64,000 nt of DNA from Candidatus Latescibacterota bacterium. Its GTDB lineage: Bacteria > Latescibacterota > UBA2968 > GCA-2709665. Numbering within the stretch: position 1 is the first letter of the stretch; every line of letters starts with the position of its first letter. A program made the translations under genes and the position numbers. Below are positions 47,853-64,000 of this stretch, one piece after another. Under the pieces are notes generated by a model, which saw only the letters and a program-made list of their open reading frames with translations, had not been told where the DNA came from and did not search any database. The DNA lies in contig OZ252100.1 of assembly GCA_965248435.1 (NCBI GenBank), positions 4,576,001 to 4,640,000 of the forward strand. The letters run 5' to 3'.

Positions 47853-48031
47853 TCGGAAAAGCTGGATCACTAAAAGACACGAAATCCCACGAAAACACAC
47901 GAAGCCCCACCTCCCCCGCATACTTATGAGCTGATTGCGATTCACGATCGACGAACGACGCAATCGGAATATAGGAAGGAAGAGCAAAAAGTTTACTGAA
48001 GGGCGAATTGACTCGCTGCGTACCTACCGAA

Positions 48032-48104
48032 GCCGCCTTAGCTCAACCGGTAGAGCAACGGATTTGTAATCCGTAGGTTGGGGGTTCGAGTCCCCTGGGC
48101 GGCT
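48032..48104 (+). tRNA. tRNA-Thr (anticodon TGT), CCA not encoded
   Basis: Cloverleaf: acceptor GCCGCCT/GGGCGGC, D arm GCTC/GAGC, anticodon arm ACGGA-TTTGTAA-TCCGT, T arm GGGGG-TTCGAGT-CCCCT. Confidence 0.95.
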
Positions 48105-48164
48105 TTAAAACACGTGGATCGTGGATCGTCGCTCGTCGTTCGCAAGCAGAAGTCAGTTCACCGC

Positions 48165-49166
48165 TTGGACCTTGCCCGGGAGTGGGCTCAGACGGTTAAA
48201 GCGGATGCCATTCGCGGCGAGATTCGCGGAAATAGGAAGCTGGAGCCCATACCGTTTGGCACATTCGCTGATGAATACCTGAAGGTCTGGGGTCTTAAGC
48301 GGAAACCAAGCACTGTTGAACGAGAGAAGACCCGCATTGATGGAATCCTAAAACCATATTTCGGACAGAAACCCATCCATACCATTTCCCGCAAGGATAT
48401 TGACGTCTATATTGCCAGGCGCATGAGCGGCGAATTTCGCATACGCATCTCCGGAGGTATCTCCAAGGCAACCGCGAACAGAGAACTTTGTCGTTTGAAG
48501 AACATGCTTCAGAAAGCTGTCGAGTGGGCATACCTACCGAGTAATCGAGCCGAAGGGATCAAGCAGGAACCGGAGAATGTTGAGGAAGCTGACCTTCTAA
48601 GCGAGGAGGAAGTAGCCAGCCTGTTGGAGGCCTGTGACGAAAATATTCAAGCCCTGGTGGTAGCAGCTGTTAATACTGGTATGAGATGGGGAGAGTTAAT
48701 GGCGCTCGAATGGAGGGATATTGACTTTGAGCGGACGCTGATAACTGTGCGGGATTCCAAGAATAATGAGACACGTTATGTACGAATGAATACGGCTGTC
48801 AGCCAAGCCCTGGAATCTCATCAGCGAAATCAGGCACAGAAAGCTGGGGGCATCGGTCCGATTGTCTTCGCAAACCAAGATACAGGCAAGCCCTATCGGG
48901 ACATCCGCGGACCTTTTTACAGAGCTCTACGCAAGGCTGGAATAGCTCGGCACTTTGCTTTTTACGGCCTTCGGCACACAGCTGCCAGCCATCTGGTCAT
49001 GGCAGGTGTTGATCTCCGAACAGTAGGGAAGATCCTTGGACATAAGACGGCTCAGATTACCCTTCGATATGCCCACCTTGCCGAAGACCATCTGAAGGGC
49101 GCCGTTGACAAGCTCGATTTCTCACCCGCAAGGTTCGAAGCGAATCGCGTGGATAAAAGCCTATAA
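48165..49166 (+). CDS. Phage-type tyrosine integrase, probably 5'-truncated
   Basis: ATANREL, NTGMRWGEL, SKNNETR, FYGLRHTAASHL and LGHKTAQITLRYAH motifs. There is no convincing RBS or ATG. The track start (48078) lies inside the tRNA, so the start given here is approximate. Confidence 0.8.
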   Translation: MDLAREWAQTVKADAIRGEIRGNRKLEPIPFGTFADEYLKVWGLKRKPSTVEREKTRIDGILKPYFGQKPIHTISRKDIDVYIARRMSGEFRIRISGGISKATANRELCRLKNMLQKAVEWAYLPSNRAEGIKQEPENVEEADLLSEEEVASLLEACDENIQALVVAAVNTGMRWGELMALEWRDIDFERTLITVRDSKNNETRYVRMNTAVSQALESHQRNQAQKAGGIGPIVFANQDTGKPYRDIRGPFYRALRKAGIARHFAFYGLRHTAASHLVMAGVDLRTVGKILGHKTAQITLRYAHLAEDHLKGAVDKLDFSPARFEANRVDKSL

Positions 49167-51096: not shown

Positions 51097-53802
51097 ATGA
51101 TTTACTTCCGAAAGTTCCTTCTGCCAACAATCGTGTTTCTCTTTGTGCTCGGCATTGGGGCCGCACTCCTGATCATCGTTGAACACGACCGGATCGGCGA
51201 ACTGCGCGAGGCGGTCAACGAGGTTGGCATTGGACAGGCCTACACGCTGCAGCGTCAACTGGATCGCTCGCTCTCTTCGACCGTTGCGCTTGCAGTGCTT
51301 TTGCGTCAAGACAATGAGCACAAGTTACACAACTTTGACGAACTCGCGGCCCACATGATCGAAAGCTACGGTGGTATCAGTAGCTTACAACTGGCGCCCG
51401 ATGGCATCGTTACCCGGATCTATCCGTTAGCAGGCAACGAGGCGGCGATAGGCCACGACCTGCTAAATGACCCTGGACGCCGGACTGAGGCCTTGGCGGC
51501 GATTGAATCGAGGAAGCTGACACTCGCCGGGCCGTTCGCCCTGATCCAGGGGGGCGTTGCTGTCATCGGTCGCCTGCCGGTTTTTGTCTCCGACGATGCC
51601 GGGGGAGAACGCTTCTGGGGGTTCACGATCGCCCTGATTGGCCTGTCCGACTTACTCGAAGCGAGTAAGTTAGGCAGGCTTGTGGAGCGTGGGTATGACT
51701 ACGAGCTTTCCCGGATTCATCCTGACAGCGGCGAGCGCGTCGTGCTTGATCGGTCATCGGAGGAGGATCTTCGGGAGCCACTCCAGTTCGAGATTGAGGT
51801 GCCGAATGGAATGTGGTCACTGTCCGTTGCGCCCAGAGCCGGATGGCGGCCGGAAACCATCTTCTCGCTGCAGGTGATTCTGGTGGTCTTTTGCGGCATG
51901 TTCTTTTCCCTTCTCACGTACGCCCTGCAGAATAGAGTTGCCGGACACCAACAGCAGGCAGAGGAAACTCAAAAGTACAAAGCGTATCTCTTACGGAATG
52001 TTTCTGATGCCGTTATTGCCACAGATATAGACCTCAGGGTAACAAGCTGGAATAGAGCGGCTGAAAAGATCTACGGCTGGCGTGAAGATGAAGTTATCGG
52101 TCGAGATATAGATGAAGTTTGTGCGACAGAATTTGTCGGTGTCGAGCAAGAGGCAGCTCAAAAACAGCTTCTTGATACCGGTGAATGGCGAGGCGAGGTT
52201 ACTCAGAAAGGCAGAAACTCCGAAACGATCTACGTCATGGCATCGGTATCGTTGCTGAAAGACGCACGTGGAAATCCAAGTGGTGGGGTCACGGTAAATC
52301 GTGACATCACCGAGCGCAAGCAAGCAGAAGAAGCCCTTCAGAAAGCGCACGATGAACTGGAAGCAAAGGTCGAGGAACGAACCGCAGAACTGCACGCTGC
52401 CTACCGCTCTGTCGAGGAACGCGAGGCGATCACACGGACGCTCCTCGATGCACCGGCCGATGCCATCGTGCTTGTGGACAGGGCAGGGAACATCGTCGAT
52501 GCAAACCAGACAGTGGCTGACCGATTCGGAATGAGGTTGTGCGATATTCTTGGTGGCAGTATCTGGGATCTGGTGCCGGCGGACGTGGCCGCCAGTCGGA
52601 TCAAGTACATGGAGCAGACGCTCCAATCGTGCGAACCGGTGCGGTGGGAGGATGAGCTGGCAGGGATGTGGTTCGACAACGCCATGTATCCCATCCTTGG
52701 TGCAGAGGGAGAGGTGTTGATGATCGCCCTCTTGGCCCGGGACATCAGCGAGCGCAGAAAGATGGAGGAGGACCTCCGGACCAAAGATCTGGCTATCGAA
52801 TCCGCCATCAACGGCATCGGGATAGCGGACATGAATGGGATGGTCACCTACGTAAACGACGCCGTAGTGAAGATGTGGGGATATGATGATGGCAAGGAGA
52901 TCATAGGACGCGCGATTACGGAGTTCTGGGAGGGCGAGCGGATCTACGAGACGCTTCGAGCGCTCAACGAGGAAGGCGGCAGGATCGGCGAGGATACCGG
53001 GAAGCGTAGGGATGGTTCTCTGTTTCCAGTCGAGTTTTCTGCCACCGTGATCAGGGATGACACAGGAAAGCCGCTCTGCATGTTCGGCTCATTCATCGAC
53101 ATCACGGCCCGCAAGCGGACCGAGGCTACTTTGAAGGAAACCCAGCGACAGCTGCACGCGCTTGCTGCGCACCTTCACTCCGTTCAGGAACAGGAGCGGC
53201 GGACCATTGCGAGAGAAATGCACGATGAGCTCGGGCAGATACTGACCTCGGCGAAGATCGATCTCAGGATGATCTCCAGTGATCTCGCGGACGAGTCAGT
53301 GGAACGGGAGCAGCTGATACCTGAGATCGAGACCGTGCTCCAGCATCTGGATTCGACGATAAAGCAAACAAGAACGCTTGTCACGCAGCTGAGGCCGAAG
53401 ATTCTGGATGATCTGGGACTCCTGCCGGCGATCGAATGGCAGCTGGACGAGTTCGGTCGTCGCACCTCGCTTCAGTGCTCACTGACTTCGATGCTGGAGC
53501 AAGTGGACCTCGATGTGGAACGGGCGACCCCTGTCTTCAGGATCTTCCAAGAGGCTTTGACGAACATCGCACGGCACGCACAAGCGACGGAAGTCCGGGT
53601 TATCCTGGACAGCGACGATGGGAAGATGCGACTGGAGATTACCGACAACGGCGTCGGATTCGAAGAGGACAAACGGGGCGGCGAACTGACCTTCGGCCTG
53701 CTCGGCATGAAAGAACGTGCTTCGATGTTGAGTGGAGATCTGGAGATTATCAGCCGTGGAGGCGAAGGAACGACCGTTCGGCTGACAGTCCCCATCCCGT
53801 AG
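51097..53802 (+). CDS. CHASE + 3 PAS sensor histidine kinase (HisKA_3, NarX/UhpB-type)
   Basis: Two TMs flanking CHASE (YPLAGNEAAIGHDL, LAGPF.LIQGG), three PAS/PAC units, ERRTIAREMHDELGQ, QEALTNIARHA, DNGVGF and GLLGMKER. Confidence 0.92.
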   Translation: MIYFRKFLLPTIVFLFVLGIGAALLIIVEHDRIGELREAVNEVGIGQAYTLQRQLDRSLSSTVALAVLLRQDNEHKLHNFDELAAHMIESYGGISSLQLAPDGIVTRIYPLAGNEAAIGHDLLNDPGRRTEALAAIESRKLTLAGPFALIQGGVAVIGRLPVFVSDDAGGERFWGFTIALIGLSDLLEASKLGRLVERGYDYELSRIHPDSGERVVLDRSSEEDLREPLQFEIEVPNGMWSLSVAPRAGWRPETIFSLQVILVVFCGMFFSLLTYALQNRVAGHQQQAEETQKYKAYLLRNVSDAVIATDIDLRVTSWNRAAEKIYGWREDEVIGRDIDEVCATEFVGVEQEAAQKQLLDTGEWRGEVTQKGRNSETIYVMASVSLLKDARGNPSGGVTVNRDITERKQAEEALQKAHDELEAKVEERTAELHAAYRSVEEREAITRTLLDAPADAIVLVDRAGNIVDANQTVADRFGMRLCDILGGSIWDLVPADVAASRIKYMEQTLQSCEPVRWEDELAGMWFDNAMYPILGAEGEVLMIALLARDISERRKMEEDLRTKDLAIESAINGIGIADMNGMVTYVNDAVVKMWGYDDGKEIIGRAITEFWEGERIYETLRALNEEGGRIGEDTGKRRDGSLFPVEFSATVIRDDTGKPLCMFGSFIDITARKRTEATLKETQRQLHALAAHLHSVQEQERRTIAREMHDELGQILTSAKIDLRMISSDLADESVEREQLIPEIETVLQHLDSTIKQTRTLVTQLRPKILDDLGLLPAIEWQLDEFGRRTSLQCSLTSMLEQVDLDVERATPVFRIFQEALTNIARHAQATEVRVILDSDDGKMRLEITDNGVGFEEDKRGGELTFGLLGMKERASMLSGDLEIISRGGEGTTVRLTVPIP

Positions 53803-53916
53803 CCGCCCAGGCGGGCCTCTTAGGCATCTGTAACCTCGCAGATTGCAGAGGCGGCTGCTGCGGCTCAAAGTCGCAGAATAACCAGGAACCACTGAACGAC
53901 GCAGGAGAAATCAGCA

Positions 53917-54549
53917 ATGATCCGGACTCTGATCGCCGATGACCACGTACTGATCCGCGAGGGATTCAAAAAGCTGATCGGCAAGGAGCCGGGCATGTCG
54001 GTGGTGGCTGAGTGCGCGAATGGGTCCGAGGTTCTCGGGGCGGTCGAAAGGACCGGCTGCGATGTGGTCGTGCTGGATCTCAACATGCCCGGCAAGAACG
54101 GCCTGGATGTGCTCGCAGAACTCAGGAACGTGAGCCGGTCGCCAAAGGTCATTGTCCTGAGCATTTCCCCTGAAGAGCAGTTTGGCGTGAGGGTGATGAA
54201 GGCGGGTGCCTGGGGCTACCTGACCAAGGAGAGCGCACCGGAGGAGTTGCTTAATGCAATCCGAAAAGTCAGCAGTGGTCACAAGTATGTCAGCGAGGGG
54301 CTGGCCGAGAGGATGGCGTTCGATCTGGCCGGGCAGTCGGACGCAAAGCTGCACGAGAGGCTCTCGGACAGAGAGTTCCAGGTGCTTCGGTTGCTCGGCG
54401 CGGGAAAGACGACGGCGGAGATAGGCGAGCAGCTGTCGTTGAGCATTAACACGATCAACACCTACCGCAAGCGGATCCAGGAGAAGACGGGATTGCGTTC
54501 GAACGGAGAGATGGTGAGATACGCGGTGGAGAACGGACTGGTAGATTAG
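53917..54549 (+). CDS. NarL/FixJ-family response regulator (REC + LuxR HTH)
   Basis: IADDH, LDLNMPG, GYLTK and LSDREFQVL...TINTYRKRI motifs. Confidence 0.95.
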   Translation: MIRTLIADDHVLIREGFKKLIGKEPGMSVVAECANGSEVLGAVERTGCDVVVLDLNMPGKNGLDVLAELRNVSRSPKVIVLSISPEEQFGVRVMKAGAWGYLTKESAPEELLNAIRKVSSGHKYVSEGLAERMAFDLAGQSDAKLHERLSDREFQVLRLLGAGKTTAEIGEQLSLSINTINTYRKRIQEKTGLRSNGEMVRYAVENGLVD

Positions 54550-54767
54550 GCTAAGGCGAGTATCGCGCAAGGGCGCGAATGATCGGAAAGGAGAGCCACG
54601 ACATGCAGAGCGTGAAGAGGTAAGTTGGGGTTAATGAGGTAACGCGAGAAGGCCAAGGTCGAGGGCGCTGGATGAGTTCCGGCGCTTTTCTTGTGCCAGC
54701 GTGCTGGTAGGACTTCCAGGAGCGGGATCGGCAGTATGATCCTGCTCCTTTTTTCGTGCCTGCAAGC

Positions 54768-54850: not shown

Positions 54851-54920
54851 GCGATATCTTTGTCGGAGCTCGTAGACCGAGGTTTGGCTCTATGCGTTGG
54901 ACACGCGGACAGGAGGCAGG

Positions 54921-55283
54921 ATGAAGGTGCTCGTCGCGGAAGATTCCACGACCGTCCTCAGGAGTATGATCAGGGTAATCCTCCTGATGGACGGTGTCGA
55001 GATCGTGGGGCGGGCTCGGACCGCCTCGGAGGGCATTGCGCTCACGGACGATATGAGGCCAGACGTGGTCGTGCTGTCGATTTCGTTGTCGCAGGGATCC
55101 GGGTTCGACGTGCTGAGGCACATACGAGAGAAGAAGATGGCGACGCACGTGATCCTGCTTGCAGACAGCGTGTCCGAGCAGTACAGGCACAAGGGCCTGA
55201 AGGAGGGCGCTGACATGGTGTTCGACAAGGCTACGGAGATCGACAAGATTGTGGAAGCTGTCGGGCTGCAGTTGGACGTGTAG
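54921..55283 (+). CDS. Stand-alone receiver-domain protein, atypical
   Basis: MKVLVAEDS...PDVVVLSISLSQGSGF...FDK. Ser sits at the usual phospho-Asp position. Confidence 0.8.
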   Translation: MKVLVAEDSTTVLRSMIRVILLMDGVEIVGRARTASEGIALTDDMRPDVVVLSISLSQGSGFDVLRHIREKKMATHVILLADSVSEQYRHKGLKEGADMVFDKATEIDKIVEAVGLQLDV

Positions 55284-55409
55284 AGGTGAGGACCCCAGCA
55301 TGCTCATTCGCCGAGGAGAGCAGTGGATTCCGGAGCTCGGCTCACGTCGGCCAGGTGGACACCATTCTTCCGGTTTGGCCGCGGTGTAGAAACCGATAAG
55401 GAGACCGTC

Positions 55410-56696
55410 TTGGAGCGATTCAGCAGCATTGCCTCCGCTGCTTTGATCGTGCTTCTAGTATGCAGCGTTGCGGTGTCCGCTGAGCCTGCGGCCGAGACGG
55501 TGACGGTTCAGCTCAAGTGGTCCCACCACTTCCAATTCGCAGGCTTCTACGCCGCCGTGGAGAAGGGCTTCTATGCCGAGGAAGGGCTGGAGGTCACACT
55601 CAGGGAACGAGATTCAGAGAAGAGCCACATCCAGTCGGTCCTCCATGGAGAAGCCCAGTACGGTGTGGCAGATGCCGGGCTGCTCTTGGACTATCTGCAG
55701 GGAGAGGACGTTGTCCTCCTCAAACAGATCTTTCAGCACTCGCCCCTGGTTCTGCTCTCACTGAAGAATTCGGGTATTGCGGCTGCGCACGATCTGGTGG
55801 GCCGGACGGTGATGGTGGATATCGAAGGTCGCAGCAGCGCCCCGATTCTGGCTATGCTGCTCAACACGATGGGCGACATTGGCCAGGTCCAGTTTGTGCC
55901 GCAGTCGTTCAGTCTGGAGGACCTGACCTCCGGCGGATTCGACCCTGATGCCGTGCGCTTCGATCCGGCGTCGGTCCTAGTAGTGGATGACGTGGAAGCC
56001 AACCGTCAACTGGTGAGCGCGTTCCTCTCGCCCTACGGTCTTGCCGTGATGGAAGCGGCAGACGGTGAGGAAGGTGTGGAGCAGACCCGGACGCATCGTC
56101 CGAACCTGGTTCTGATGGATATCCGCATGTCGGGGATGGACGGGCTGACCGCCACGCGTGTGCTGAAGGAAGATGGTGAGACAGCGGACATCCCGATCGT
56201 GGCCCTGACGGCGTCCGTGATGAAAGAGGACGAGGACGAGATCCGGGAAGGCTTCGACGGGTTCCTTCGGAAGCCTGTCAACCGTGCGGCGTTGATGGCT
56301 GAACTGGCGCGCTTCCTTCCCCACGAGATGAAGGAGACCCTCAGCCCGGAGCCTGCAGTGCCGACCGAAGAAGCGTGGGAGCCCGGACTCCTGGATGAGG
56401 CGTCGTTGACGAAGCTGACCGGTCTCGTGGAAGCGCTCGAGTCCGACGTTCTACCGGTCTGGGAGGGCGTTCGGGGAACCGCCAACGTGACGGCTGTGGA
56501 GGAGTTCGCGGAGCTGTTGGCGCGGGTGGTGGACGGGACGCTGTTCCCTCCGCTCCAGAGCTGGACGGAGAAGCTGAAGGGACAGGCGGCTGGCTTCCAA
56601 ATGGATCTCCTGCCGCAGACACTCGAGGAGTTTCCGAATCTGGTCGCCGATCTGAAGCAGATCGCGACGGCAGGCGCCCGGAAGCTTGAAGCATGA
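55410..56696 (+). CDS. NMT1/THI5-type sensor fragment fused directly to REC and a helical tail (internally deleted hybrid kinase)
   Basis: Signal peptide and VQLKWSHHFQFAGFYAAVEKGFYAEEGL, then an abrupt switch near 55935 to a REC module. No TM and no kinase core. Confidence 0.75.
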   Translation: MERFSSIASAALIVLLVCSVAVSAEPAAETVTVQLKWSHHFQFAGFYAAVEKGFYAEEGLEVTLRERDSEKSHIQSVLHGEAQYGVADAGLLLDYLQGEDVVLLKQIFQHSPLVLLSLKNSGIAAAHDLVGRTVMVDIEGRSSAPILAMLLNTMGDIGQVQFVPQSFSLEDLTSGGFDPDAVRFDPASVLVVDDVEANRQLVSAFLSPYGLAVMEAADGEEGVEQTRTHRPNLVLMDIRMSGMDGLTATRVLKEDGETADIPIVALTASVMKEDEDEIREGFDGFLRKPVNRAALMAELARFLPHEMKETLSPEPAVPTEEAWEPGLLDEASLTKLTGLVEALESDVLPVWEGVRGTANVTAVEEFAELLARVVDGTLFPPLQSWTEKLKGQAAGFQMDLLPQTLEEFPNLVADLKQIATAGARKLEA

Positions 56697-56818
56697 CCGG
56701 ACTTCCGAGTCGGCTCCGTCAACAGGATGCCGGTTTGACACAACCCAGCGAGTCTGTTTAACACTCTGGAGGAATGGGTAGGGTGAGGAACTTCGTGCCA
56801 ATACACAGAAACCTGCCG

Positions 56819-59800
56819 ATGAGCCTGTGCATCATTCTACGGCACCTGAGTCTTGCCTCGCTTGCGTTGCTAGGCACAAGGGGACTCGCCGATGCGCAGT
56901 CGCCGTCACCGGTCCAGGTGAAAGGCGCGTACGTTCTCAATTTCCTGAAGTACGTCGAATGGAAAGACGAGGGTTCGGTGTCTCGCTTTGTTGTGGGCAT
57001 GTACGGAGAGGACGAGGCACTCTACCGCGAGCTTTCCACGGCACTTCCCAAGATGAAGGCAAAACAGAAGGGAATCCAGGTCGTACAGGTGTCGGATATC
57101 GAGCAGGCGAAGTCGGTGCATCTGCTGATGGTGGCCGGGTCTGAAAACACCGACATCAGAGCGATCGCAAATGGCGTTCGCCGCACGAATACGCTGCTGG
57201 TGACAGACAACTGCGGCGACAAGCAGTCGATCATGATCAACCTCACCGCCTTCGGAGGGGATCGGATTGGGTTCGAAGTCAACAAACCCAACATCGTGTA
57301 CGAGGGGCTGAAACTATCTCCGGACATCCTGTTCCTGGGGGGTACCGAACTGGATGTGGCCGAGCTCTACCGCGAAATGGAGGCCTCCCTTCAGAATACA
57401 CGGGAAACGGTAGGGGTTCAGCAAGCCGAACTGGAGAGACAGCGAGACGAAATTGAGGAGCGAGGTCGAGAGATTGAGACTCAGAACGCCCGCCTGGCGA
57501 AACAGAACCGTGAGATCGAGGAGAAGCAAGCGTTGTTGGGTAGCCTTGAGAAGCGGCTCGCGGATGAACGTTCTGTGCTCAGAGCGAACCAGAGCCGAAT
57601 GGAGGCGTATGAATCTGAACTGAGGTCCAAGCTGAATACGCTGGCGGCGAGAGAGATCCAGGTGGAAACCCTGGCCGCTGAGATCAATGCCAACAGGGAG
57701 GTGCTTGAGAAGCAGAGGGGGCAGATTAGCGCCCAGGCGGAGCAGATCGAACAGCAGCAAGAGAACCTGGAGACACAGGACTCGACCATACAAAGACAGG
57801 AAGCGCTGCTACTGGGCGGAGGCATCATCCTGCTTCTGGTGATAACTCTGGGTGGGGTGATCTCCTGGGGCTACAGGCTTAACCGAAAGACTTCCGCAGC
57901 GCTCAGGCAGAGCGAGGCCGACTTCAGATCCCTCGTCCTCAACACTCCCGGGGTCGTCTACCGCTGTGCCCTGGATGAGCACTGGACCATGATGTACATG
58001 AGCGACCGCATCGAGGACCTTTCTGGTTATCCCAGCTCAGACTTCATCGGAAACGAAGCGCGTTCTTTCGCAAGCATCATTGCTCCTGAAGATGTGGAGA
58101 TGGTCGATCGCGTCGTCCAGGAAGGGGTCGAGCGGAGGCAGCCCTACATCATAGAGTATCGCATTCAACACCGGGATGGTTCTCTGCGATGGGTCTATGA
58201 ACAGGGAAGCGCCGTGTTCGAGGAGAAAGGGGATGTCAGTTATCTGGACGGTTTCATCATGGACATCACGGAGCGTAAGGAGAAGGATCGGTTTCTGCGG
58301 TTTGCGACGCACGCCATGGACAATAGCGCGGATATCGCGCTCTGGCTCGACGCTGATACTGCGCAGTTACGATTCGTCAACAAGGCTGCGTGCGAGCAGC
58401 TTGGGTATACCAAAGAAGAACTCCTCGAACTCACCATTCCCGACATCGACCCGTTGTTCCCCCAAGAGCGGTGGCCGGCATTCTCTAGTTCCCTCCGCGA
58501 ACAGGGCTTCATGCAGTTCGAGACGCAACAGCAAAGAAAAAACGGGGAGATCTATCCGGCCGAGGTGACGGTCAGTTCGGTGGACTTCGAACGGGTAACT
58601 TACTTCATATCCTTCTCCCGTGACATTACAGACCGCAAGAAGGCCGATGCAGAGCTTCTTGCCGCGAAAGAGGCGGCTGATGAGGCCAACAGCGCCAAGA
58701 GCATGTTTCTTGCCAACATGTCGCACGAGATCCGCACGCCCATGAACGCCGTGCTTGGATTCTCAGAAGTGCTGCGCACACTCGTCAAGGGAGAGCAGGA
58801 GAAGCAGTATCTGGATTCTATCCAGTCGAGCGGGAAGGCCTTGCTTGGATTGATCAACGACATCCTGGATCTGTCGAAGGTGGAGGCCGGCAAGCTCGAG
58901 CTGGAATACGCGGCCGTGGACGCGCCCGCGGTGTTCCAGGATATGGAGGCCGTGTTCGGCCAGCGCATGGACGAGAAAGGGCTCACCTTCATCCTCGATC
59001 TGGATCCGGACCTGCGTAAGGCGCTGATCCTGGACGAGGTGAGGCTGCGCCAGGTCCTGATCAACCTGATCGGCAACGCGATCAAGTTCACGGAGGAGGG
59101 GCACGTCCGGCTGGCCGCTGCGGCCGTCTCGGAACGAGAAACCGGCAGCCGGATGGATCTTATGATCTCAGTCGAGGATACGGGGATCGGGATCCCGGAG
59201 GATCAGCAGGGAAAGATCTTCGGGGCGTTCGAGCAGACGGTGGGACAGAGCCATATCCGCTTCGGAGGAACGGGTCTGGGGCTGGCGATCACCAAGAGAC
59301 TGGTCGAATTGATGGGCGGTGAGATTTCCGTCGAAAGCCAGGTGGGCAAGGGAAGCACGTTCCACATTCGGCTGAAACATGTGGCCGTCGCTTCGGTGGA
59401 CGATTTGGCAGAGACGGACACGGGCATAGACCCGGATGCCTTGCAGTTCGATCCAGCGTCGGTCTTAGTCGTGGATGACGTGGAAGCCAACCGTCAACTG
59501 GTGAGCGCGTTCCTCTCGCCCTACGGTCTTGCCGTGATGGAAGCGGCGGACGGTGAGGAAGGTGTGGAGCAGACCCGGGCGCATCGTCCGAACCTGGTTC
59601 TGATGGATATCCGCATGTCGGGGATGGACGGGCTGACCGCGACGCGTGTGCTGAAGGAAGATGGTGAGACAGCGGACATCCCGATCGTGGCCCTGACGGC
59701 ATCCGTGATGAAGGAGGACGAGGACGAGATCCGGGAGAGCTTCGACGGCTTCCTCCGGAAGCCTGTCAACCGTGCGGCATTGATGGCTGAGCTGGCGCGC

Positions 59801-60193
59801 TTCCTTCCGCACGAGACGGCGGCGTCGATCAGTCCGGAGCCTGCCGCGTCCCCAGCGGCAGAAGTGTGGCAGCCGGAGGATCTGGATGGAGAATCGCTCG
59901 CGAAGCTGTCCGCTCTGGTGGACGTGCTGGAGTCCGACGTTCGGCCGGTCTGGGAGGGCGTTCGGGGAACCGCCAACGTGTCGGCTGTGGAGGAGTTCGC
60001 GGAGCTGTTGGGGCGGGTGGTGGACGGGACGCTGTTCCCTCCGCTCCAGAGCTGGACGGAGAAGCTGAAGGGACAGGCGGGTACCTTTCAGATGGACCTC
60101 CTGCCGCAAACCCTCGAGGAGTTCCCGGATCTGGTCGAGAATCTGAAGCAGGTCACAACACACACGACGGCAAAGGAGAAGCACGAAGGATGA
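56819..60193 (+). CDS. YfiR/DUF4154-like + coiled coil + TM + 2 PAS hybrid histidine kinase with REC
   Basis: QVKGAYVLNFLKYVEW...FEVN...GLKLSP (YfiR-like), long Q/E/R heptads, TM, two PAS, FLANMSHEIRTPMN, GGTGLGL and REC LMDIRM. Confidence 0.9.
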   Translation: MSLCIILRHLSLASLALLGTRGLADAQSPSPVQVKGAYVLNFLKYVEWKDEGSVSRFVVGMYGEDEALYRELSTALPKMKAKQKGIQVVQVSDIEQAKSVHLLMVAGSENTDIRAIANGVRRTNTLLVTDNCGDKQSIMINLTAFGGDRIGFEVNKPNIVYEGLKLSPDILFLGGTELDVAELYREMEASLQNTRETVGVQQAELERQRDEIEERGREIETQNARLAKQNREIEEKQALLGSLEKRLADERSVLRANQSRMEAYESELRSKLNTLAAREIQVETLAAEINANREVLEKQRGQISAQAEQIEQQQENLETQDSTIQRQEALLLGGGIILLLVITLGGVISWGYRLNRKTSAALRQSEADFRSLVLNTPGVVYRCALDEHWTMMYMSDRIEDLSGYPSSDFIGNEARSFASIIAPEDVEMVDRVVQEGVERRQPYIIEYRIQHRDGSLRWVYEQGSAVFEEKGDVSYLDGFIMDITERKEKDRFLRFATHAMDNSADIALWLDADTAQLRFVNKAACEQLGYTKEELLELTIPDIDPLFPQERWPAFSSSLREQGFMQFETQQQRKNGEIYPAEVTVSSVDFERVTYFISFSRDITDRKKADAELLAAKEAADEANSAKSMFLANMSHEIRTPMNAVLGFSEVLRTLVKGEQEKQYLDSIQSSGKALLGLINDILDLSKVEAGKLELEYAAVDAPAVFQDMEAVFGQRMDEKGLTFILDLDPDLRKALILDEVRLRQVLINLIGNAIKFTEEGHVRLAAAAVSERETGSRMDLMISVEDTGIGIPEDQQGKIFGAFEQTVGQSHIRFGGTGLGLAITKRLVELMGGEISVESQVGKGSTFHIRLKHVAVASVDDLAETDTGIDPDALQFDPASVLVVDDVEANRQLVSAFLSPYGLAVMEAADGEEGVEQTRAHRPNLVLMDIRMSGMDGLTATRVLKEDGETADIPIVALTASVMKEDEDEIRESFDGFLRKPVNRAALMAELARFLPHETAASISPEPAASPAAEVWQPEDLDGESLAKLSALVDVLESDVRPVWEGVRGTANVSAVEEFAELLGRVVDGTLFPPLQSWTEKLKGQAGTFQMDLLPQTLEEFPDLVENLKQVTTHTTAKEKHEG

Positions 60194-60283: not shown

Positions 60284-63187
60284 GTGCAGACGCCCGAAAA
60301 ATCGATGATTGACATCCTGTGGATGCTGGTTGCAGCGGGTCTGGTGTTCCTGATGCAGGCGGGTTTCACGTGTCTGGAGTCCGGACTGACCCGGGCGAAG
60401 AACAGCATCAATGTGGCGGTCAAGAACCTGACCGACGTGACAATCTGTATCGTGCTGTTCTGGGCGTACGGATTCGCCCTGATGTTCGGGCAGAGCGCGG
60501 GTGGATGGATCGGGCTCACCGGCTTCTTTGCCCCAGTGGACGAAAGGACGGGTTGGCTGGGTGCGTTCTTTCTCTACGAAGCAGTCTTCTGTGGCACCGC
60601 CGTGACCATCATCTCCGGGGCTGTGGCGGAACGTATGCGATTCAAGGCCTACATTATCGTCGCCGTGGTTGTCTCGTCTCTGGTCTACCCGATCTACGGC
60701 CACTGGGCGTGGGGAGGAACCTTTCAGGGAACATCCGGTTGGCTCAAAGCCCTCGGCTTCGTCGACTTCGCGGGTTCGACCGTAGTCCACAGCCTTGGAG
60801 GCTGGATCGCCCTGGTCCTTGTGATCATCATCGGACCCCGGCGGGGTCGCTTCGGCCCGGACGGTCTGCCGCGGGAGATCGAGGGAGCCAACCTGTCGAT
60901 GTCGGTGCTGGGCGTACTAATCCTGTGGTTCGGCTGGTTCGGATTTAACGGCGGGGGTCTGTTCGGGATGAGCGAAAGGGTGCCTGGTATTCTGGCAAAC
61001 ACCTTCCTGGCGGGTGCCTCGGGTGCCATCGCCTCGCTGTCCCTTGGATGGTACGTCAAGGGACAGTCACAGGTTCGGGAGCTCATCAATGGCGTTCTGG
61101 CGGGACTCGTCGCGATCACGGCCAGCTGCCACGCCGTGAGTCCCAAGATGGCCGTACTGATTGGGGCGGTCGGCGGTGTGACGATGCTTGGGGTGAGCCA
61201 TCTGCTCGTCCGTCTTCGGGTTGACGACGCCGTAGACGCCGTGGGCGTCCACCTGGGGGCGGGGTTGTGGGGTACGCTGGCGGTCGGTTTATTCGGTGAC
61301 CTCGAACGTCTCGCCACGGGACTCACTCGCACCGAACAGATTGGCGTGCAGCTGCTCGGGGCGCTGGTCTGCGCCGTCTTAGCCTTTTGTTTCGGATCGA
61401 TCGTGTTCCGTCTGATCAACCGGTTCTACCCGTACCGCGTCACGCCCGAAGAAGAAGACCTCGGCCTCAATGTGTCCGAGCACGGTGCGGCTACGGCACT
61501 GCTCGACATGTATGAAGCGATGGACGAGCAGGCAGCGGCGGGCGACGTGTCGATGCGCCTTCCCGTGGACCCCTTCTCCGAGGCGGGCGGGATCGCGATG
61601 CACTACAACCGGGTGATGAGCGGGCTTGAGAAGACGCGGAAGGAGCTCATCAACGCGAAAGAGGCAGCCGAGCGAAGTGCGCGCGAGGCCGAGGCTGCCA
61701 ATCAGTCGAAGAGCGTCTTCCTTGCAAACGTGTCCCATGAAATCCGAACGCCGATGAATGCGATTCTGGGCTTCGCCGAGATCTTGAGCGGCCGCCTTCC
61801 TAACGAGCAGGATCGGGAGTACCTGGACTCAATCCAGGCGTCAGGGAAGTCGCTTCTCAGCATGATCAACGACATTCTCGACCTGTCCAAAGTCGAGGCC
61901 GGAAGGACTGAAGCCTTTCTCGCTCCGGTCGAGGCACATACCGTGCTGTGGGACATGGAGACCCTCTTCCGACCGGGGGCGGAAGAAAAGGGACTCGCCT
62001 TTCACGTCGAGATCGATGACGCGCTGCCCGAGGTGATGCTTCTGGACGAGGCGCTCCTCCGCCAGACGCTGCAGAACCTGATCGACAATGCGATCAAGTT
62101 CACGCACCAGGGCTACGTGAGGGTCCTGGCGAAGCCGGTCTTTGCTTCCGCTGACGACTCGCAGCTGGACCTGGTTCTAACGGTCGCCGACAGCGGCATC
62201 GGGATCGCGGAAGACCAGCGTGAAGAGATTTTCGGGACATTCAGCCAGCAGAGGGACCATGACGTGAACGTGTATAGGGGCGCCGGCCTCGGGCTGGCGA
62301 TCACCAAACGGACCGTGGAAGTGATGGGGGGCGAGATCAGGCTGACGAGCGAGGTCGGGAAAGGGAGCACGTTTACGGTCAAGATCGGAGACGTAAACGT
62401 TGCCGCTGTGCAGGATCTGGCTGCGCCGGACGAAGAGATCGATGCGAATGTCATCCGCTTTGGGCGATCGACCGTCCTTGTCGCGGACGATATCTCCGCC
62501 AATCGTCTTCTCGTGAAAGGTTACCTCGAAGAATCGCCCCTGACCGTCCTGGAAGCCGAGGATGGCTCAAAGGCGCTGGAGATGACCCGGAGGGAGCGGC
62601 CCGACCTCATCCTGATGGACATCAAGATGCCCGTACTTGACGGGTTCAAGGCCACGAGGATGCTCAAGGCGGATCCAGAACTCAGACAGATCCCTGTCAT
62701 CGCACTGACAGCGTCCGTGATGCGGGAATCAGAGGCCGAGGTCAGGGAGATCAGTGACGGCTATCTCCGAAAGCCCGTCAGTCGAGCGGACCTGATTCGC
62801 GAGCTGGTCAAGTACCTACCTCATTCATTAGATGTCGAGGAGCCCGACGCGCCCACCTCAACGCCGGAACCGGAGTCGGCGTGGTCAGGCGAGTCGCTGG
62901 ACGGGGCGACGATCGAGCGGTTGCGCAGTCTGGCGGAAGCGATTGATGCAGAACTGCACCCGGCCTGGGAAAGCGTACGAGCAGGGGCCAACGTGACGGC
63001 CGTGGAAGCCTTCGCAGATCAGGTCGAGTCGCTGATGGCGGGGTGCAGCTACCCTCCCCTGTCCGATTGGACGAAGGCGCTGAAGGCACAGGCCAGGACG
63101 TTTCAGGTGGATCTTCTTCCCCAGACACTCCACCGCTTCCCGGATCTCGTGGAGGAAATGCGGGCGTTGGGCGGAGGTGGTGCATAA
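60284..63187 (+). CDS. Ammonium transporter (Amt)-HAMP-like-histidine kinase-receiver fusion
   Basis: MQAGF..LESG..RAKN, ISGAVAER, DFAGSTVVH, WFGWFGFN, DDAVDAVGVH and EEEDLGLNVSEHG (Amt); FLANVSHEIRTPMN and GAGLGL (kinase); LMDIKMP (REC). Confidence 0.93.
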   Translation: MQTPEKSMIDILWMLVAAGLVFLMQAGFTCLESGLTRAKNSINVAVKNLTDVTICIVLFWAYGFALMFGQSAGGWIGLTGFFAPVDERTGWLGAFFLYEAVFCGTAVTIISGAVAERMRFKAYIIVAVVVSSLVYPIYGHWAWGGTFQGTSGWLKALGFVDFAGSTVVHSLGGWIALVLVIIIGPRRGRFGPDGLPREIEGANLSMSVLGVLILWFGWFGFNGGGLFGMSERVPGILANTFLAGASGAIASLSLGWYVKGQSQVRELINGVLAGLVAITASCHAVSPKMAVLIGAVGGVTMLGVSHLLVRLRVDDAVDAVGVHLGAGLWGTLAVGLFGDLERLATGLTRTEQIGVQLLGALVCAVLAFCFGSIVFRLINRFYPYRVTPEEEDLGLNVSEHGAATALLDMYEAMDEQAAAGDVSMRLPVDPFSEAGGIAMHYNRVMSGLEKTRKELINAKEAAERSAREAEAANQSKSVFLANVSHEIRTPMNAILGFAEILSGRLPNEQDREYLDSIQASGKSLLSMINDILDLSKVEAGRTEAFLAPVEAHTVLWDMETLFRPGAEEKGLAFHVEIDDALPEVMLLDEALLRQTLQNLIDNAIKFTHQGYVRVLAKPVFASADDSQLDLVLTVADSGIGIAEDQREEIFGTFSQQRDHDVNVYRGAGLGLAITKRTVEVMGGEIRLTSEVGKGSTFTVKIGDVNVAAVQDLAAPDEEIDANVIRFGRSTVLVADDISANRLLVKGYLEESPLTVLEAEDGSKALEMTRRERPDLILMDIKMPVLDGFKATRMLKADPELRQIPVIALTASVMRESEAEVREISDGYLRKPVSRADLIRELVKYLPHSLDVEEPDAPTSTPEPESAWSGESLDGATIERLRSLAEAIDAELHPAWESVRAGANVTAVEAFADQVESLMAGCSYPPLSDWTKALKAQARTFQVDLLPQTLHRFPDLVEEMRALGGGGA

Positions 63188-63216
63188 AGACGGAGCGTGA
63201 GGAGTCTGGAGCATCT

Positions 63217-64000
63217 GTGAAATCGAAAACGATAAAAAAATCAACAGTTAGTATCGCTTGCTTATTCATCCTGACAGATTTCATGCCTTCGTTGGCGGCA
63301 GAATCAGACGATTCACTCAAGGTGGATCAAATGTATAGTCTGAGCTTGGAACAACTGATGCAGGTCCGCGTTGTAACCGCCTCCAGGCGAACTCAAAGGA
63401 TTAGTGAGGCCCCCTCTATCATTTCAGCTTTTGGCCGGCAGGACATCGACAACATGTCGGTGACCTCCCTCATTGACGTGATTAAACACGCACCAGGCAT
63501 AGAAACGAGCATGGATCCCGATGGTCATTGGCGGGTCTCCATTCGCGGGGTGCGCAAAGATGGCAATATATTGCTGTTGATTGATGGTCAGCCCTTCAAT
63601 GACTTCTACGATGGGCGTGCACTGTTTGACTTGCCCACTGAATTTATCGATAGAATTGAAATTATCCGTGGGCCTGGCTCAGCCTTGTATGGCACCAATG
63701 CAGTGGCTGGCATTATTAATGTCTTTACCATACAAGAACAAAATAGAGCCAGCCTCAGTATTGGCAATAACACCACCTACAGAACAAGTTTCAGCCACCA
63801 CACAGAATTCGGCAATGAGGCCATCCTGTCGATTAGTGTTGGTGCCTCTGATACCGATGGCGCCAATGTCACCGATGACCAGGACTCTGCTGACGGCTTC
63901 GGTCTCGATACAGGCACCACCAACCGTCACAAAAGGGAACTCTTTTTAACCACTGCCTACAGCCAAAACAATCTCAAACTGTCATTAATGGGATTTAGAC
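63217..64000 (+). CDS. TonB-dependent receptor, N-terminal plug (runs off the window)
   Basis: Absent from the ORF track. Manual translation gives a signal peptide, SLSLEQLMQVRVVTASRRTQRISEAPS, SIRG, LLLIDG and IDRIEIIRGPGSALYGTNAVAGIINVFT. Confidence 0.9.
   Translation, partial: MKSKTIKKSTVSIACLFILTDFMPSLAAESDDSLKVDQMYSLSLEQLMQVRVVTASRRTQRISEAPSIISAFGRQDIDNMSVTSLIDVIKHAPGIETSMDPDGHWRVSIRGVRKDGNILLLIDGQPFNDFYDGRALFDLPTEFIDRIEIIRGPGSALYGTNAVAGIINVFTIQEQNRASLSIGNNTTYRTSFSHHTEFGNEAILSISVGASDTDGANVTDDQDSADGFGLDTGTTNRHKRELFLTTAYSQNNLKLSLMGFR

Follow-up and report, generated by a model that had tools for sequence, protein, structure and literature searches.

A probable ammonium receptor wired to a hybrid histidine kinase, with rare residues in its outer vestibule, in a Latescibacterota bacterium

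The subject of this report is the plus-strand gene at 60284-63187 of a 64,000-nucleotide stretch of DNA from a Candidatus Latescibacterota bacterium (contig OZ252100.1, positions 4,576,001 to 4,640,000), the whole of which is hereafter termed the window. The gene, referred to below as the Amt kinase gene, probably encodes an ammonium receptor of the AmR class, of the type known from Ks-Amt5 and Sd-Amt1, wired to a hybrid histidine kinase. The protein appears to be an ordinary member of that class, because the ligands of its internal ammonium pocket (the N1/N2 pocket), the Lys/Tyr switch and the exit Asn are all kept, and because the known receptors rank far ahead of the transporter AmtB in similarity. 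Three residues of its outer vestibule, Y98, E99 and G225, differ from those usual in the family; by analogy with studied transporters, these most likely tune the speed or tightness of ammonium recruitment, and not what is sensed. The assignment draws on the domain order, on named residues and their conservation statistics, and on predicted helices. The gene and those of its parts that the argument needs are as follows, with coordinates given in the window.

60284..63187, plus strand: whole Amt kinase gene, 967 amino acids, GTG start (open reading frame list; Pfam and NCBIfam domains)
60317..61492, plus strand: Amt domain (Ammonium_transp, PF00909), residues 12-403, Pfam E 5e-116, probably of the receptor (AmR) subtype
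60356..60616, plus strand: N1/N2 pocket stretch with Q25, F28, E32, K47, N48, D51, V52, T108 and S111 (alignment, regular expression, conservation in 261 relatives)
60575..60580, plus strand: Y98-E99, codons TAC GAA, in the outer vestibule (F103-Q104 in AmtB, F94-Q95 in Sd-Amt1)
60944..60958, plus strand: FNGGG, residues 221-225, codons TTT AAC GGC GGG GGT; F221 is the gate Phe and G225 (GGT) replaces the vestibule Ser
61472..61633, plus strand: HAMP-like helix-connector-helix (AlphaFold2 (AF2) model, Sd-Amt1 homology)
61709..61903, plus strand: HisKA (DHp), residues 476-540, PF00512 E 1.2e-22, SHEIRTP at residue 484
62045..62386, plus strand: HATPase_c, residues 588-701, PF02518 E 2.8e-25, with N, G1, F and G2 boxes
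62474..62800, plus strand: receiver (REC; Response_reg), residues 731-839, PF00072 E 5e-21, with D735/D736, D779, T809 and K830
62834..63184, plus strand: four-helix tail with an Hpt-like fold and no conserved His (AF2, Foldseek)

The reading frame is uninterrupted over its 967 codons and runs from the Amt domain through a HAMP-like helical hairpin, HisKA, HATPase_c and a receiver to a helical tail of ~117 amino acids. At the N-terminal end the PF00909 match spans positions 1-397 of the 399 in the profile, and the NCBIfam model TIGR00836 ('amt') scores 395.7 bits, above its cutoff of 343.3; the NCBIfam hybrid-kinase models score under their equivalog cut-offs. In the C-terminal half the kinase motifs DNAIKFT, DSGIGI and GAGLGLAI are found, and a motif test located both the predicted phospho-accepting H485 (codon 61736-61738) and the receiver phospho-acceptor D779 (codon 62618-62620). 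Judged from its sequence, therefore, with HisKA, HATPase_c, REC and their catalytic residues all in place, the protein qualifies as a hybrid histidine kinase. The first-pass annotation, made from the letters of the DNA, had described just such an Amt-HAMP-like-HK-REC protein with intact kinase His and receiver Asp, which would make it a sensor kinase fused to Amt in the manner of Ks-Amt5 and equipped with a receiver and a HAMP-like connector of its own, and this layout is borne out by the Pfam domains, the PDB matches, the homology to Sd-Amt1 and the AF2 model of the hairpin.

Membership of the Amt/Mep/Rh family (PF00909) is indicated by the full-length profile match together with the core residues. 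With AmtB numbering in brackets, the canonical H169 (H168), H323 (H318), W143 (W148) and D161 (D160) are kept, as is the gate Phe pair F102 (F107) and F221 (F215), and the motifs TVVH, VGVH and HWAWGG begin at residues 166, 320 and 140, respectively. A phmmer search against all PDB sequences, from which the structure ranking and the residue equivalences were taken, places Sd-Amt1 first (8qj3/8qpf, E 6e-117) and then Ks-Amt5 (6eu6, E 2e-94, residues 9-399), Archaeoglobus fulgidus Amt1 (2b2f, E 1e-50) and Escherichia coli AmtB (several entries, E about 1e-38). Sd-Amt1 and Ks-Amt5 are the sole structurally characterised ammonium receptors. Alignment to AmtB and Ks-Amt5, which the first-pass annotation had proposed as a check, returned the residue equivalences that it had described, and both this alignment and the motif test agree with its account of the twin His, the Trp and the gate Phe residues.

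In such receptors, sensing takes place not in the outer vestibule but in the internal two-cation N1/N2 pocket, which lies beyond the twin His (PMC11152129; PMC5764959, accessible part). The N1/N2 ligands of Sd-Amt1 are Gln-22, Glu-29, Asn-45, Asp-48, Thr-104 and Ser-107; in addition, Lys-44 and Tyr-119 form a switch, Phe-25 opens a side path and Asn-269 narrows the exit (PMC11152129). By alignment to Sd-Amt1 and Ks-Amt5, every one of the N1/N2 ligands is present in the query (Q25, E32, N48, D51, T108 and S111), along with the switch pair K47/Y123, the side-path F28 and the exit N269, Y123 and N269 lying outside 60356..60616. The published AmR signature, QX6EX15NX2D[F/T]X54-60TX2[S/T] (Pfluger et al. 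2024, cluster 2; PMC11152129), fits residues 25-111 with exact spacings, save for V52 at the F/T position; in other words, the strict regular expression fails and one in which the F/T position is freed matches residues 25-111. Phe-49, which stands at this position in Sd-Amt1, is no N2 ligand (PMC11152129).

Conservation was assessed in two samples, 261 fused relatives and 84 Amt matches from 80 genome loci. Among the fused relatives the pocket is nearly invariant, with Q in 260, E in 260, N in 260, D in 257 and T in 258 of the sequences, and the same holds for Y123 (258) and N269 (250); the F/T position of the signature, for its part, is L, I, V, A, M or Y in 80 of the 261. An internal control is provided by the canonical Amt copies in the genome loci (6 rows), in which Tyr takes the place of E32 and Ser that of N269. 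The signature, read in this way, and the switch, side-path and exit residues would together place the Amt module in the AmR class.

By analogy with the two characterised receptors, we infer that the protein binds ammonium and does not transport it; the direction in which the kinase is regulated and the downstream partner would likewise be matters of analogy. External NH4+ would enter the trimeric Amt module via the outer vestibule, the Phe gate and the twin-His pair, and would then be diverted into the N1/N2 pocket formed by the six ligands, with N269 narrowing the cytoplasmic exit. Occupancy of the pocket would flip the E32/K47/Y123 switch, and the resulting movement may pass via helix XI and the HAMP-like hairpin into the DHp helix, such that autophosphorylation of H485 is altered and the phosphoryl group moves from H485 to the protein's own receiver at D779. 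Because the Hpt-like tail is without its histidine, further relay would need another protein, or else the receiver would regulate the protein internally or serve as a phosphate sink. Phosphorylation of Ks-Amt5 responds to NH4+ in the full-length protein only, and the protein binds ammonium without translocating it (PMC5764959, accessible part); Sd-Amt1 behaves in the same way, with a cyclase as its output (PMC11152129).

The term 'transceptor', under which the gene was first annotated, is not the most fitting one. The case for a true transceptor, in which the Amt module both transports ammonium inward and signals, as proposed for the plant AMT1 proteins that bear the N1/N2 signature, is that transporting plant AMT1s fall in the same N1/N2 cluster, that the authors of the Sd-Amt1 study state that structure alone cannot exclude transport (PMC11152129), and that the pore blockers of Ks-Amt5, Y30 and F34, are leucines in the query (L31 and L35), which makes some through-transport possible. 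Such a protein is nevertheless unlikely, given that the exit-narrowing N269 is kept, and F28 and E32 likewise, and that both of the characterised (and structurally solved) fused receptors bind without translocation (PMC5764959, accessible part; PMC11152129).

The two leucines belong to a set of points that weigh against the assignment to an ordinary ammonium receptor. The vestibule Ser, which both AmR papers give as a fully conserved motif, is Gly in the query, such that ammonium entry could change; the Amt part of the closest relative (P0130) is just 62% identical; a Pfam scan of residues 401-479 that admitted matches up to E 10 found no family, HAMP (PF00672) included; and no orthologue was found, in the 80 genome loci searched, to show that the three vestibule substitutions have been kept by selection.

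As regards the connector, an AF2 model of residues 396-560, built from a 33-row alignment (pLDDT 81.5), consists of a helix at 397-419, a 13-residue loop at 420-432 and a second helix, which starts at 433 and leads unbroken into the DHp helix of H485. In the phmmer search the match to Sd-Amt1 extends to residue 436, and 149 of the 150 best representatives of clusters at 50% identity align to residue about 438. In Sd-Amt1 itself the second HAMP helix begins at residue 433, the HAMP call there being based on AF2 evidence only (PMC11152129). A Foldseek search matches the connector-DHp model to GacS, to CpxA HAMP-DHp and to Af1503-HAMP/EnvZ fusions over 132-159 of 165 columns, with a large root-mean-square deviation. 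On the strength of the model, 'HAMP-like' is a fair label, which falls short of a proven HAMP membership.

Within the outer vestibule, translation and alignment confirm the substitutions reported in the first-pass annotation, namely YEAVF (residues 98-102) where relatives show FQxxF, and FNGGG for FNxGS. The counterparts of G225 are S219 in AmtB, S225 in Sd-Amt1 and S227 in Ks-Amt5. The Ser of the vestibule Trp/Ser pair is consequently absent, which departs from the family pattern and yet is not disqualifying, the conservation of the pair being high and not absolute (PMC11152129). Position 225 in the fused relatives is Ser in 251 cases, Gly in 4, Asn in 3, Ala in 2 and Cys in 1; in the Amt matches from genome loci it is Ser in 77, Gly in 3, Ala in 3 and Cys in 1. 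Position 98 (F103 in AmtB) is Phe in 247 of the fused relatives and Tyr in 13, with no Tyr in the 84 Amt matches, and position 99 (Q104 in AmtB) is Gln in 234 and Glu in 18 of the former and Glu in 1 of the latter. The combination of Tyr, Glu and Gly occurs in neither sample (0 of 261 and 0 of 84).

The four other fused relatives with Gly at this position carry quite different outputs (PAS-HK; GGDEF-EAL; SpoIIE phosphatase; PAS-HK-REC-REC-Hpt), and in a FastTree phylogeny of the 261 rows, from which one row was dropped for gaps, they occupy separate clades, with Ser in all 15 of the tree neighbours closest to the query. From this distribution, Gly in place of the vestibule Ser appears to be rare and tolerated, to have arisen several times independently and to be a private change in the lineage of the query. 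Tyr98 is found in 2 of the 4 Gly-bearers as against 11 of the 257 others (Fisher p 0.013, with shared ancestry ignored), a co-variation that serves as a lead only; the genome loci show no such pattern, Tyr being absent from all 3 of their Gly-bearers.

What these substitutions may do can be judged from the transporters in which the same positions have been altered. Methylammonium transport is 2- to 10-fold higher in AmtB with S219A, W148A/L or F107A; plant AMT2 proteins naturally have Ala or Asp at the vestibule Ser position; and tomato LeAMT1;1 has a native Tyr (Y133) at the F103 position, the Y133I mutant of which shows a tenfold raised affinity and tenfold lowered currents (all PMC3355798, accessible part). 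The S262A mutant of AtAMT1;1 has moderately reduced uptake, and according to its authors recruitment and kinetics are modulated by the W/S vestibule, which is not a strict filter (PMC13745463, accessible part). S219A also abolishes the residual binding current in a twin-His mutant of AmtB (PMC7447429). In the receptors, the exclusion of methylammonium is credited to the N1/N2 pocket (PMC11152129). Since vestibule mutants keep transport and since this exclusion is credited to the pocket, a changed ligand is unlikely by analogy, and a modest shift in affinity, kinetics or sensitivity is possible. The suggestion in the first-pass annotation of a 'possibly shifted affinity or ligand' therefore survives in its first part, as a possibility and of modest extent, and is unlikely to hold in its second, the N1/N2 pocket being unchanged and the vestibule being no strict filter.

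A bolder proposal would have Y98, E99 and G225 remodel the outer site into a retuned sensor, with a marked shift in affinity or with larger amines such as methylammonium admitted and sensed. Chemically this is conceivable, in that with Gly a hydrogen-bonding Ser is lost and space gained, and Tyr brings in a hydroxyl and Glu a charge close by; the absence of the triple from the 261 relatives, the enrichment of Tyr among their Gly-bearers and the tenfold change in affinity of LeAMT1;1 Y133I (PMC3355798, accessible part) point the same way. It is a very unlikely reading, however, when set against an unchanged N1/N2 pocket, which the Sd-Amt1 authors hold to be the element that excludes methylammonium, against AmtB S219A and plant S262A mutants that still transport (PMC3355798 and PMC13745463, accessible parts), against the natural occurrence of every single change in relatives and against the lack of Tyr in the 3 Gly-bearers of the genome loci. 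The reading of Y98, E99 and G225 as residues that tune recruitment is accordingly retained as the most likely.

It had also been recognised in the first-pass annotation that the Ser-to-Gly change might be a read error in the run of G. The codon GGT is one base from AGT and sits within that G-rich run, and the sequence is present as a single copy in the collections searched: an exact look-up of the protein returned one contig alone (5.66 Mb) and no second copy, and a search of genome contigs gave 80 loci, of which the best share 57-58% identity with the query across the Amt part and none is near-identical. To these may be added that the upstream neighbour at 55323-56696 resembles a recombination remnant, as would be expected if the gene were decaying within a cluster of recombining kinase paralogues. 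Against this, homopolymer errors are mostly errors of length, which break the frame, and the change from AGT to GGT is a one-base, in-frame substitution with no change in homopolymer length, leaving the 967-codon frame uninterrupted and all catalytic motifs present. Moreover, the same site holds another two rare substitutions, ~380 bases upstream, Gly has natural precedents in 4 of 261 and 3 of 84 relatives, and the contig is one of 5.66 Mb. A read error is therefore unlikely, and an explanation of the observations in general as artefact or decay, whether by a base-call error at this codon or by decay of a paralogue, is extremely improbable. As a separate observation on the databases, the cluster at 90% identity to which the query belongs (P0121) is represented by an unrelated 54-amino-acid peptide, and its other member, of 48 amino acids, is likewise unrelated, which explains why the query is missing from the results of its own word-indexed search.

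Copies of the C-terminal tail are found by alignment in three consecutive genes, with no Pfam family.

62834-63184, plus strand: tail of the Amt kinase
59816-60193, plus strand: tail of the gene immediately upstream
56322-56696, plus strand: tail of the gene upstream of that

The tails of the two upstream genes are 44-47% identical to that of the query, and 36 columns are invariant across four sequences. Residues 840-967 match no Pfam family, Hpt (PF01627) included, at E up to 10. An AF2 model from a 4-row alignment (pLDDT 76.9) has four helices, for which the best Foldseek TM-scores are all to HPt domains (RcsD/YojN, 1sr2, 0.62; ArcB and a Shewanella HPt, both 0.57-0.58; HptB, 0.54), with E-values of 0.46-1.2 that are not significant. 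A BLASTP alignment to Hpt (E 0.036) and an hhalign comparison with the Hpt domains of relatives (probability 0.6%), neither of them significant, both pair the Hpt His with a Lys in the query; the paralogues carry Glu at this position, and none of the His residues of the tail (847, 892 and 950, being all those in residues 840-967) is conserved in the paralogues. An unorthodox kinase with a C-terminal Hpt was considered and rejected, there being no PF01627 match, no conserved His (HxxKG) and a resemblance in fold alone.

Beyond the window, a search with tail residues 850-967 recovered 1 of 914 candidates (P0271), in which a kinase is joined directly to the tail with no receiver; tblastn of the tail against the 80 genome loci gave nothing at E 1e-3, and hhalign against the tails of the cyanobacterial relatives gave a probability of 5%. 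An Atlas feature search with the tail returned unnamed clusters of ~114 amino acids at 0.92-0.97 and an Hpt cluster at just 0.87, which is a lead only. Going by the model, it is evenly balanced whether the tail is an Hpt-like bundle unable to accept phosphate. Plants are known to have Hpt proteins that lack the His and disturb the phosphorelay (AHP6).

It is conceivable, and decidedly unlikely, that the vestibule is adaptive, with the Tyr hydroxyl and Glu replacing the Ser contact, or that the receiver and the His-less tail make up a common output module that has not been described. Were the former true, the receptor would have a different working range or amine specificity; were the latter true, ammonium and two other periplasmic inputs would converge on one partner.

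Comparison with known systems bears on how ordinary the protein is. Ks-Amt5 (kuste_3690, 'Candidatus Kuenenia stuttgartiensis', 6eu6) likewise has Amt fused at its C-terminus to a DHp/CA kinase, and shares the N1/N2 ligand set, the twin His, the Phe gate and the vestibule Trp. It is, however, a protein of 679 amino acids made up of Amt and a 269-residue DHp/CA kinase, for which the accessible part of PMC5764959 mentions no receiver or tail, whereas the query adds a receiver and the Hpt-like tail. Ks-Amt5 further differs in having S227 and FQ where the query has G225 and Y98-E99, in its Arg/Asn switch, which is Lys/Tyr in the query as in Sd-Amt1, and in the pore blockers that are Leu here.

Sd-Amt1 (Shewanella denitrificans, 8qj3/8qj4/8qpf), the best PDB match, aligns through the HAMP region; its Q22, F25, E29, K44, N45, D48, T104, S107, Y119 and N269 are identical in the query, and residue 433 marks the start of the second connector helix in each of the two proteins, as modelled by AF2 for the query. 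Its output is a GGDEF diguanylate cyclase, in contrast to the hybrid histidine kinase of the query, and it has S225, F94-Q95 and F49 in place of G225, Y98-E99 and V52. AmtB and A. fulgidus Amt1 share the Amt fold and the equivalents of W148, F107, F215, D160, H168 and H318, but lack both a fused transducer and the N1/N2 ligands, show far lower similarity and line an open exit with Tyr and Ser, where the query has E32 and N269.

The same order of Amt, HAMP-like, HK and REC is found among database proteins of the form Amt-(PAS)-HisKA-HATPase-REC(-Hpt), for example P0012, P0049 and P0076, annotated as 'ammonium transporter'. In the tree, the query lies closest to P0012 (Candidatus Poribacteria), and P0130 is the relative most similar in its Amt part. 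Where these relatives have an Hpt, it matches PF01627 and has its His; the tail of the query does neither. The best 120 matches in a word-indexed search, from cyanobacteria, Chloroflexota, Planctomycetota and Poribacteria, all carry Amt, HisKA and REC, often with PAS/GAF inserts and sometimes with a true Hpt. An exhaustive search with the Amt part gave 2739 cluster representatives at E 1e-30 or better, of which the best 150 are all fused proteins, of 526-1799 amino acids and 49-62% identity. With 120 of the 120 best relatives carrying Amt, HisKA and REC, and the best 150 all fused, an Amt hybrid kinase that carries a receiver seems by these counts to be ordinary in sequence space, and the hybrid version inferred in the first-pass annotation is not unusual. 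A literature search found no paper specifically on the Amt hybrid-kinase-REC sub-architecture.

The neighbourhood was surveyed by scanning 49 open reading frames of the window for families, the window ending 0.8 kb past the Amt kinase gene. From 51.1 kb onward every gene of the window is on the plus strand, and the features of relevance are the following.

48031..49166, plus strand: tRNA-Thr(TGT) at 48031-48105 (ARAGORN), then a tyrosine integrase reading frame at 48078-49166 (Pfam Phage_integrase)
51097-53802, plus strand: CHASE-PAS x3-HisKA_3 kinase (Pfam)
53917-54549, plus strand: REC-GerE (NarL-type) regulator (Pfam)
54718-54749: strong terminator-like hairpin with a 13-bp stem (hairpin scan)
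54897..55283, plus strand: stand-alone receiver of 128 amino acids at the head of the same-strand run (PF00072 E 3.9e-17)
55323..56696, plus strand: NMT1-like binding domain, truncated, followed directly by a receiver and tail, 457 amino acids (Pfam)
56774..60193, plus strand: upstream paralogue with DUF4154/YfiR-like, two PAS, HisKA, HATPase_c, REC and the same tail (Pfam; alignment)
63043-64000, plus strand: TonB-dependent receptor with a Plug domain, product from about 63.2 kb, running off the window (Pfam)

The Amt kinase gene is thus flanked by a hybrid kinase gene upstream and a TonB-dependent receptor gene downstream; DUF4154/YfiR-like proteins, such as the N-terminal part of the upstream paralogue, often accompany TonB-dependent receptors. 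No P-II/GlnK gene is adjacent, as the first-pass annotation had observed, and none is found among the 49 reading frames scanned. Elsewhere, Sd-Amt2 is followed by glnK (PMC11152129) and AmtB binds GlnK (PMC12918730, accessible part). An assimilatory amtB-glnK unit was rejected for the present locus, there being no P-II neighbour and E32 and N269 replacing the Tyr and Ser.

Within the same-strand run, the stand-alone receiver at 54897..55283 is a candidate phospho-partner of the Amt kinase. The product of 55323-56696 has a signal-peptide-like start and matches positions 2-142 of the 216 in the NMT1/THI5-like profile, with no membrane segment or kinase core; its receiver DNA (55941-56240) is 96% identical to 59429-59728 of the next gene. 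This identity argues for recent recombination among the paralogues, and 55323-56696 is probably the product of a recent recombination or deletion.

Upstream of this run of sensors, the CHASE kinase and the REC-GerE regulator, closed by the hairpin, resemble a separate two-component unit. The hairpin is the sole item of note in a promoter and terminator scan of which the counts are no higher than those in shuffled sequence. At the regulator two reading frames overlap on opposite strands, 53911-54570 on the minus strand and 53917-54549 on the plus strand, with family matches (REC, GerE) on the plus strand only, such that a choice of the longest reading frame would have mis-annotated the 53911-54570 locus.

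The tRNA-Thr and integrase, which sit downstream of cysS and 12 kb upstream of the Amt kinase gene, possibly mark the left end of an island, such as the one on which the first-pass annotation placed the gene. Among the relatives of the CysS protein, P0272 and P0273 are 78-89% identical, and the closest that bear a name are Candidatus Latescibacteria at 65% identity, which places the taxon only roughly. The GC content dips to 0.51-0.54 at 48-52 kb and, at 60-62 kb, is 0.611, which is backbone-like. The small reading frames at 49.4-50.8 kb have no Pfam family, and the window holds no second att copy or repeat of the tRNA 3' end.

Amt-based ammonium receptors were structurally defined only in 2018 and 2024, and the response regulator partner of Ks-Amt5 was still unidentified according to a 2026 paper (PMC12918730, accessible part). 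The concept itself gains little from the present protein, in that the class, its sensing pocket and many fused outputs have already been described and hybrid forms are abundant in the databases. What the gene offers is more specific. As a natural variant without the vestibule Ser, it would be a ready-made test of the role of the Trp/Ser pair in receptor sensitivity; and the same-strand run to which it belongs, in which a stand-alone receiver is accompanied by two paralogous sensors with the same receiver and tail, provides candidates for the downstream step.

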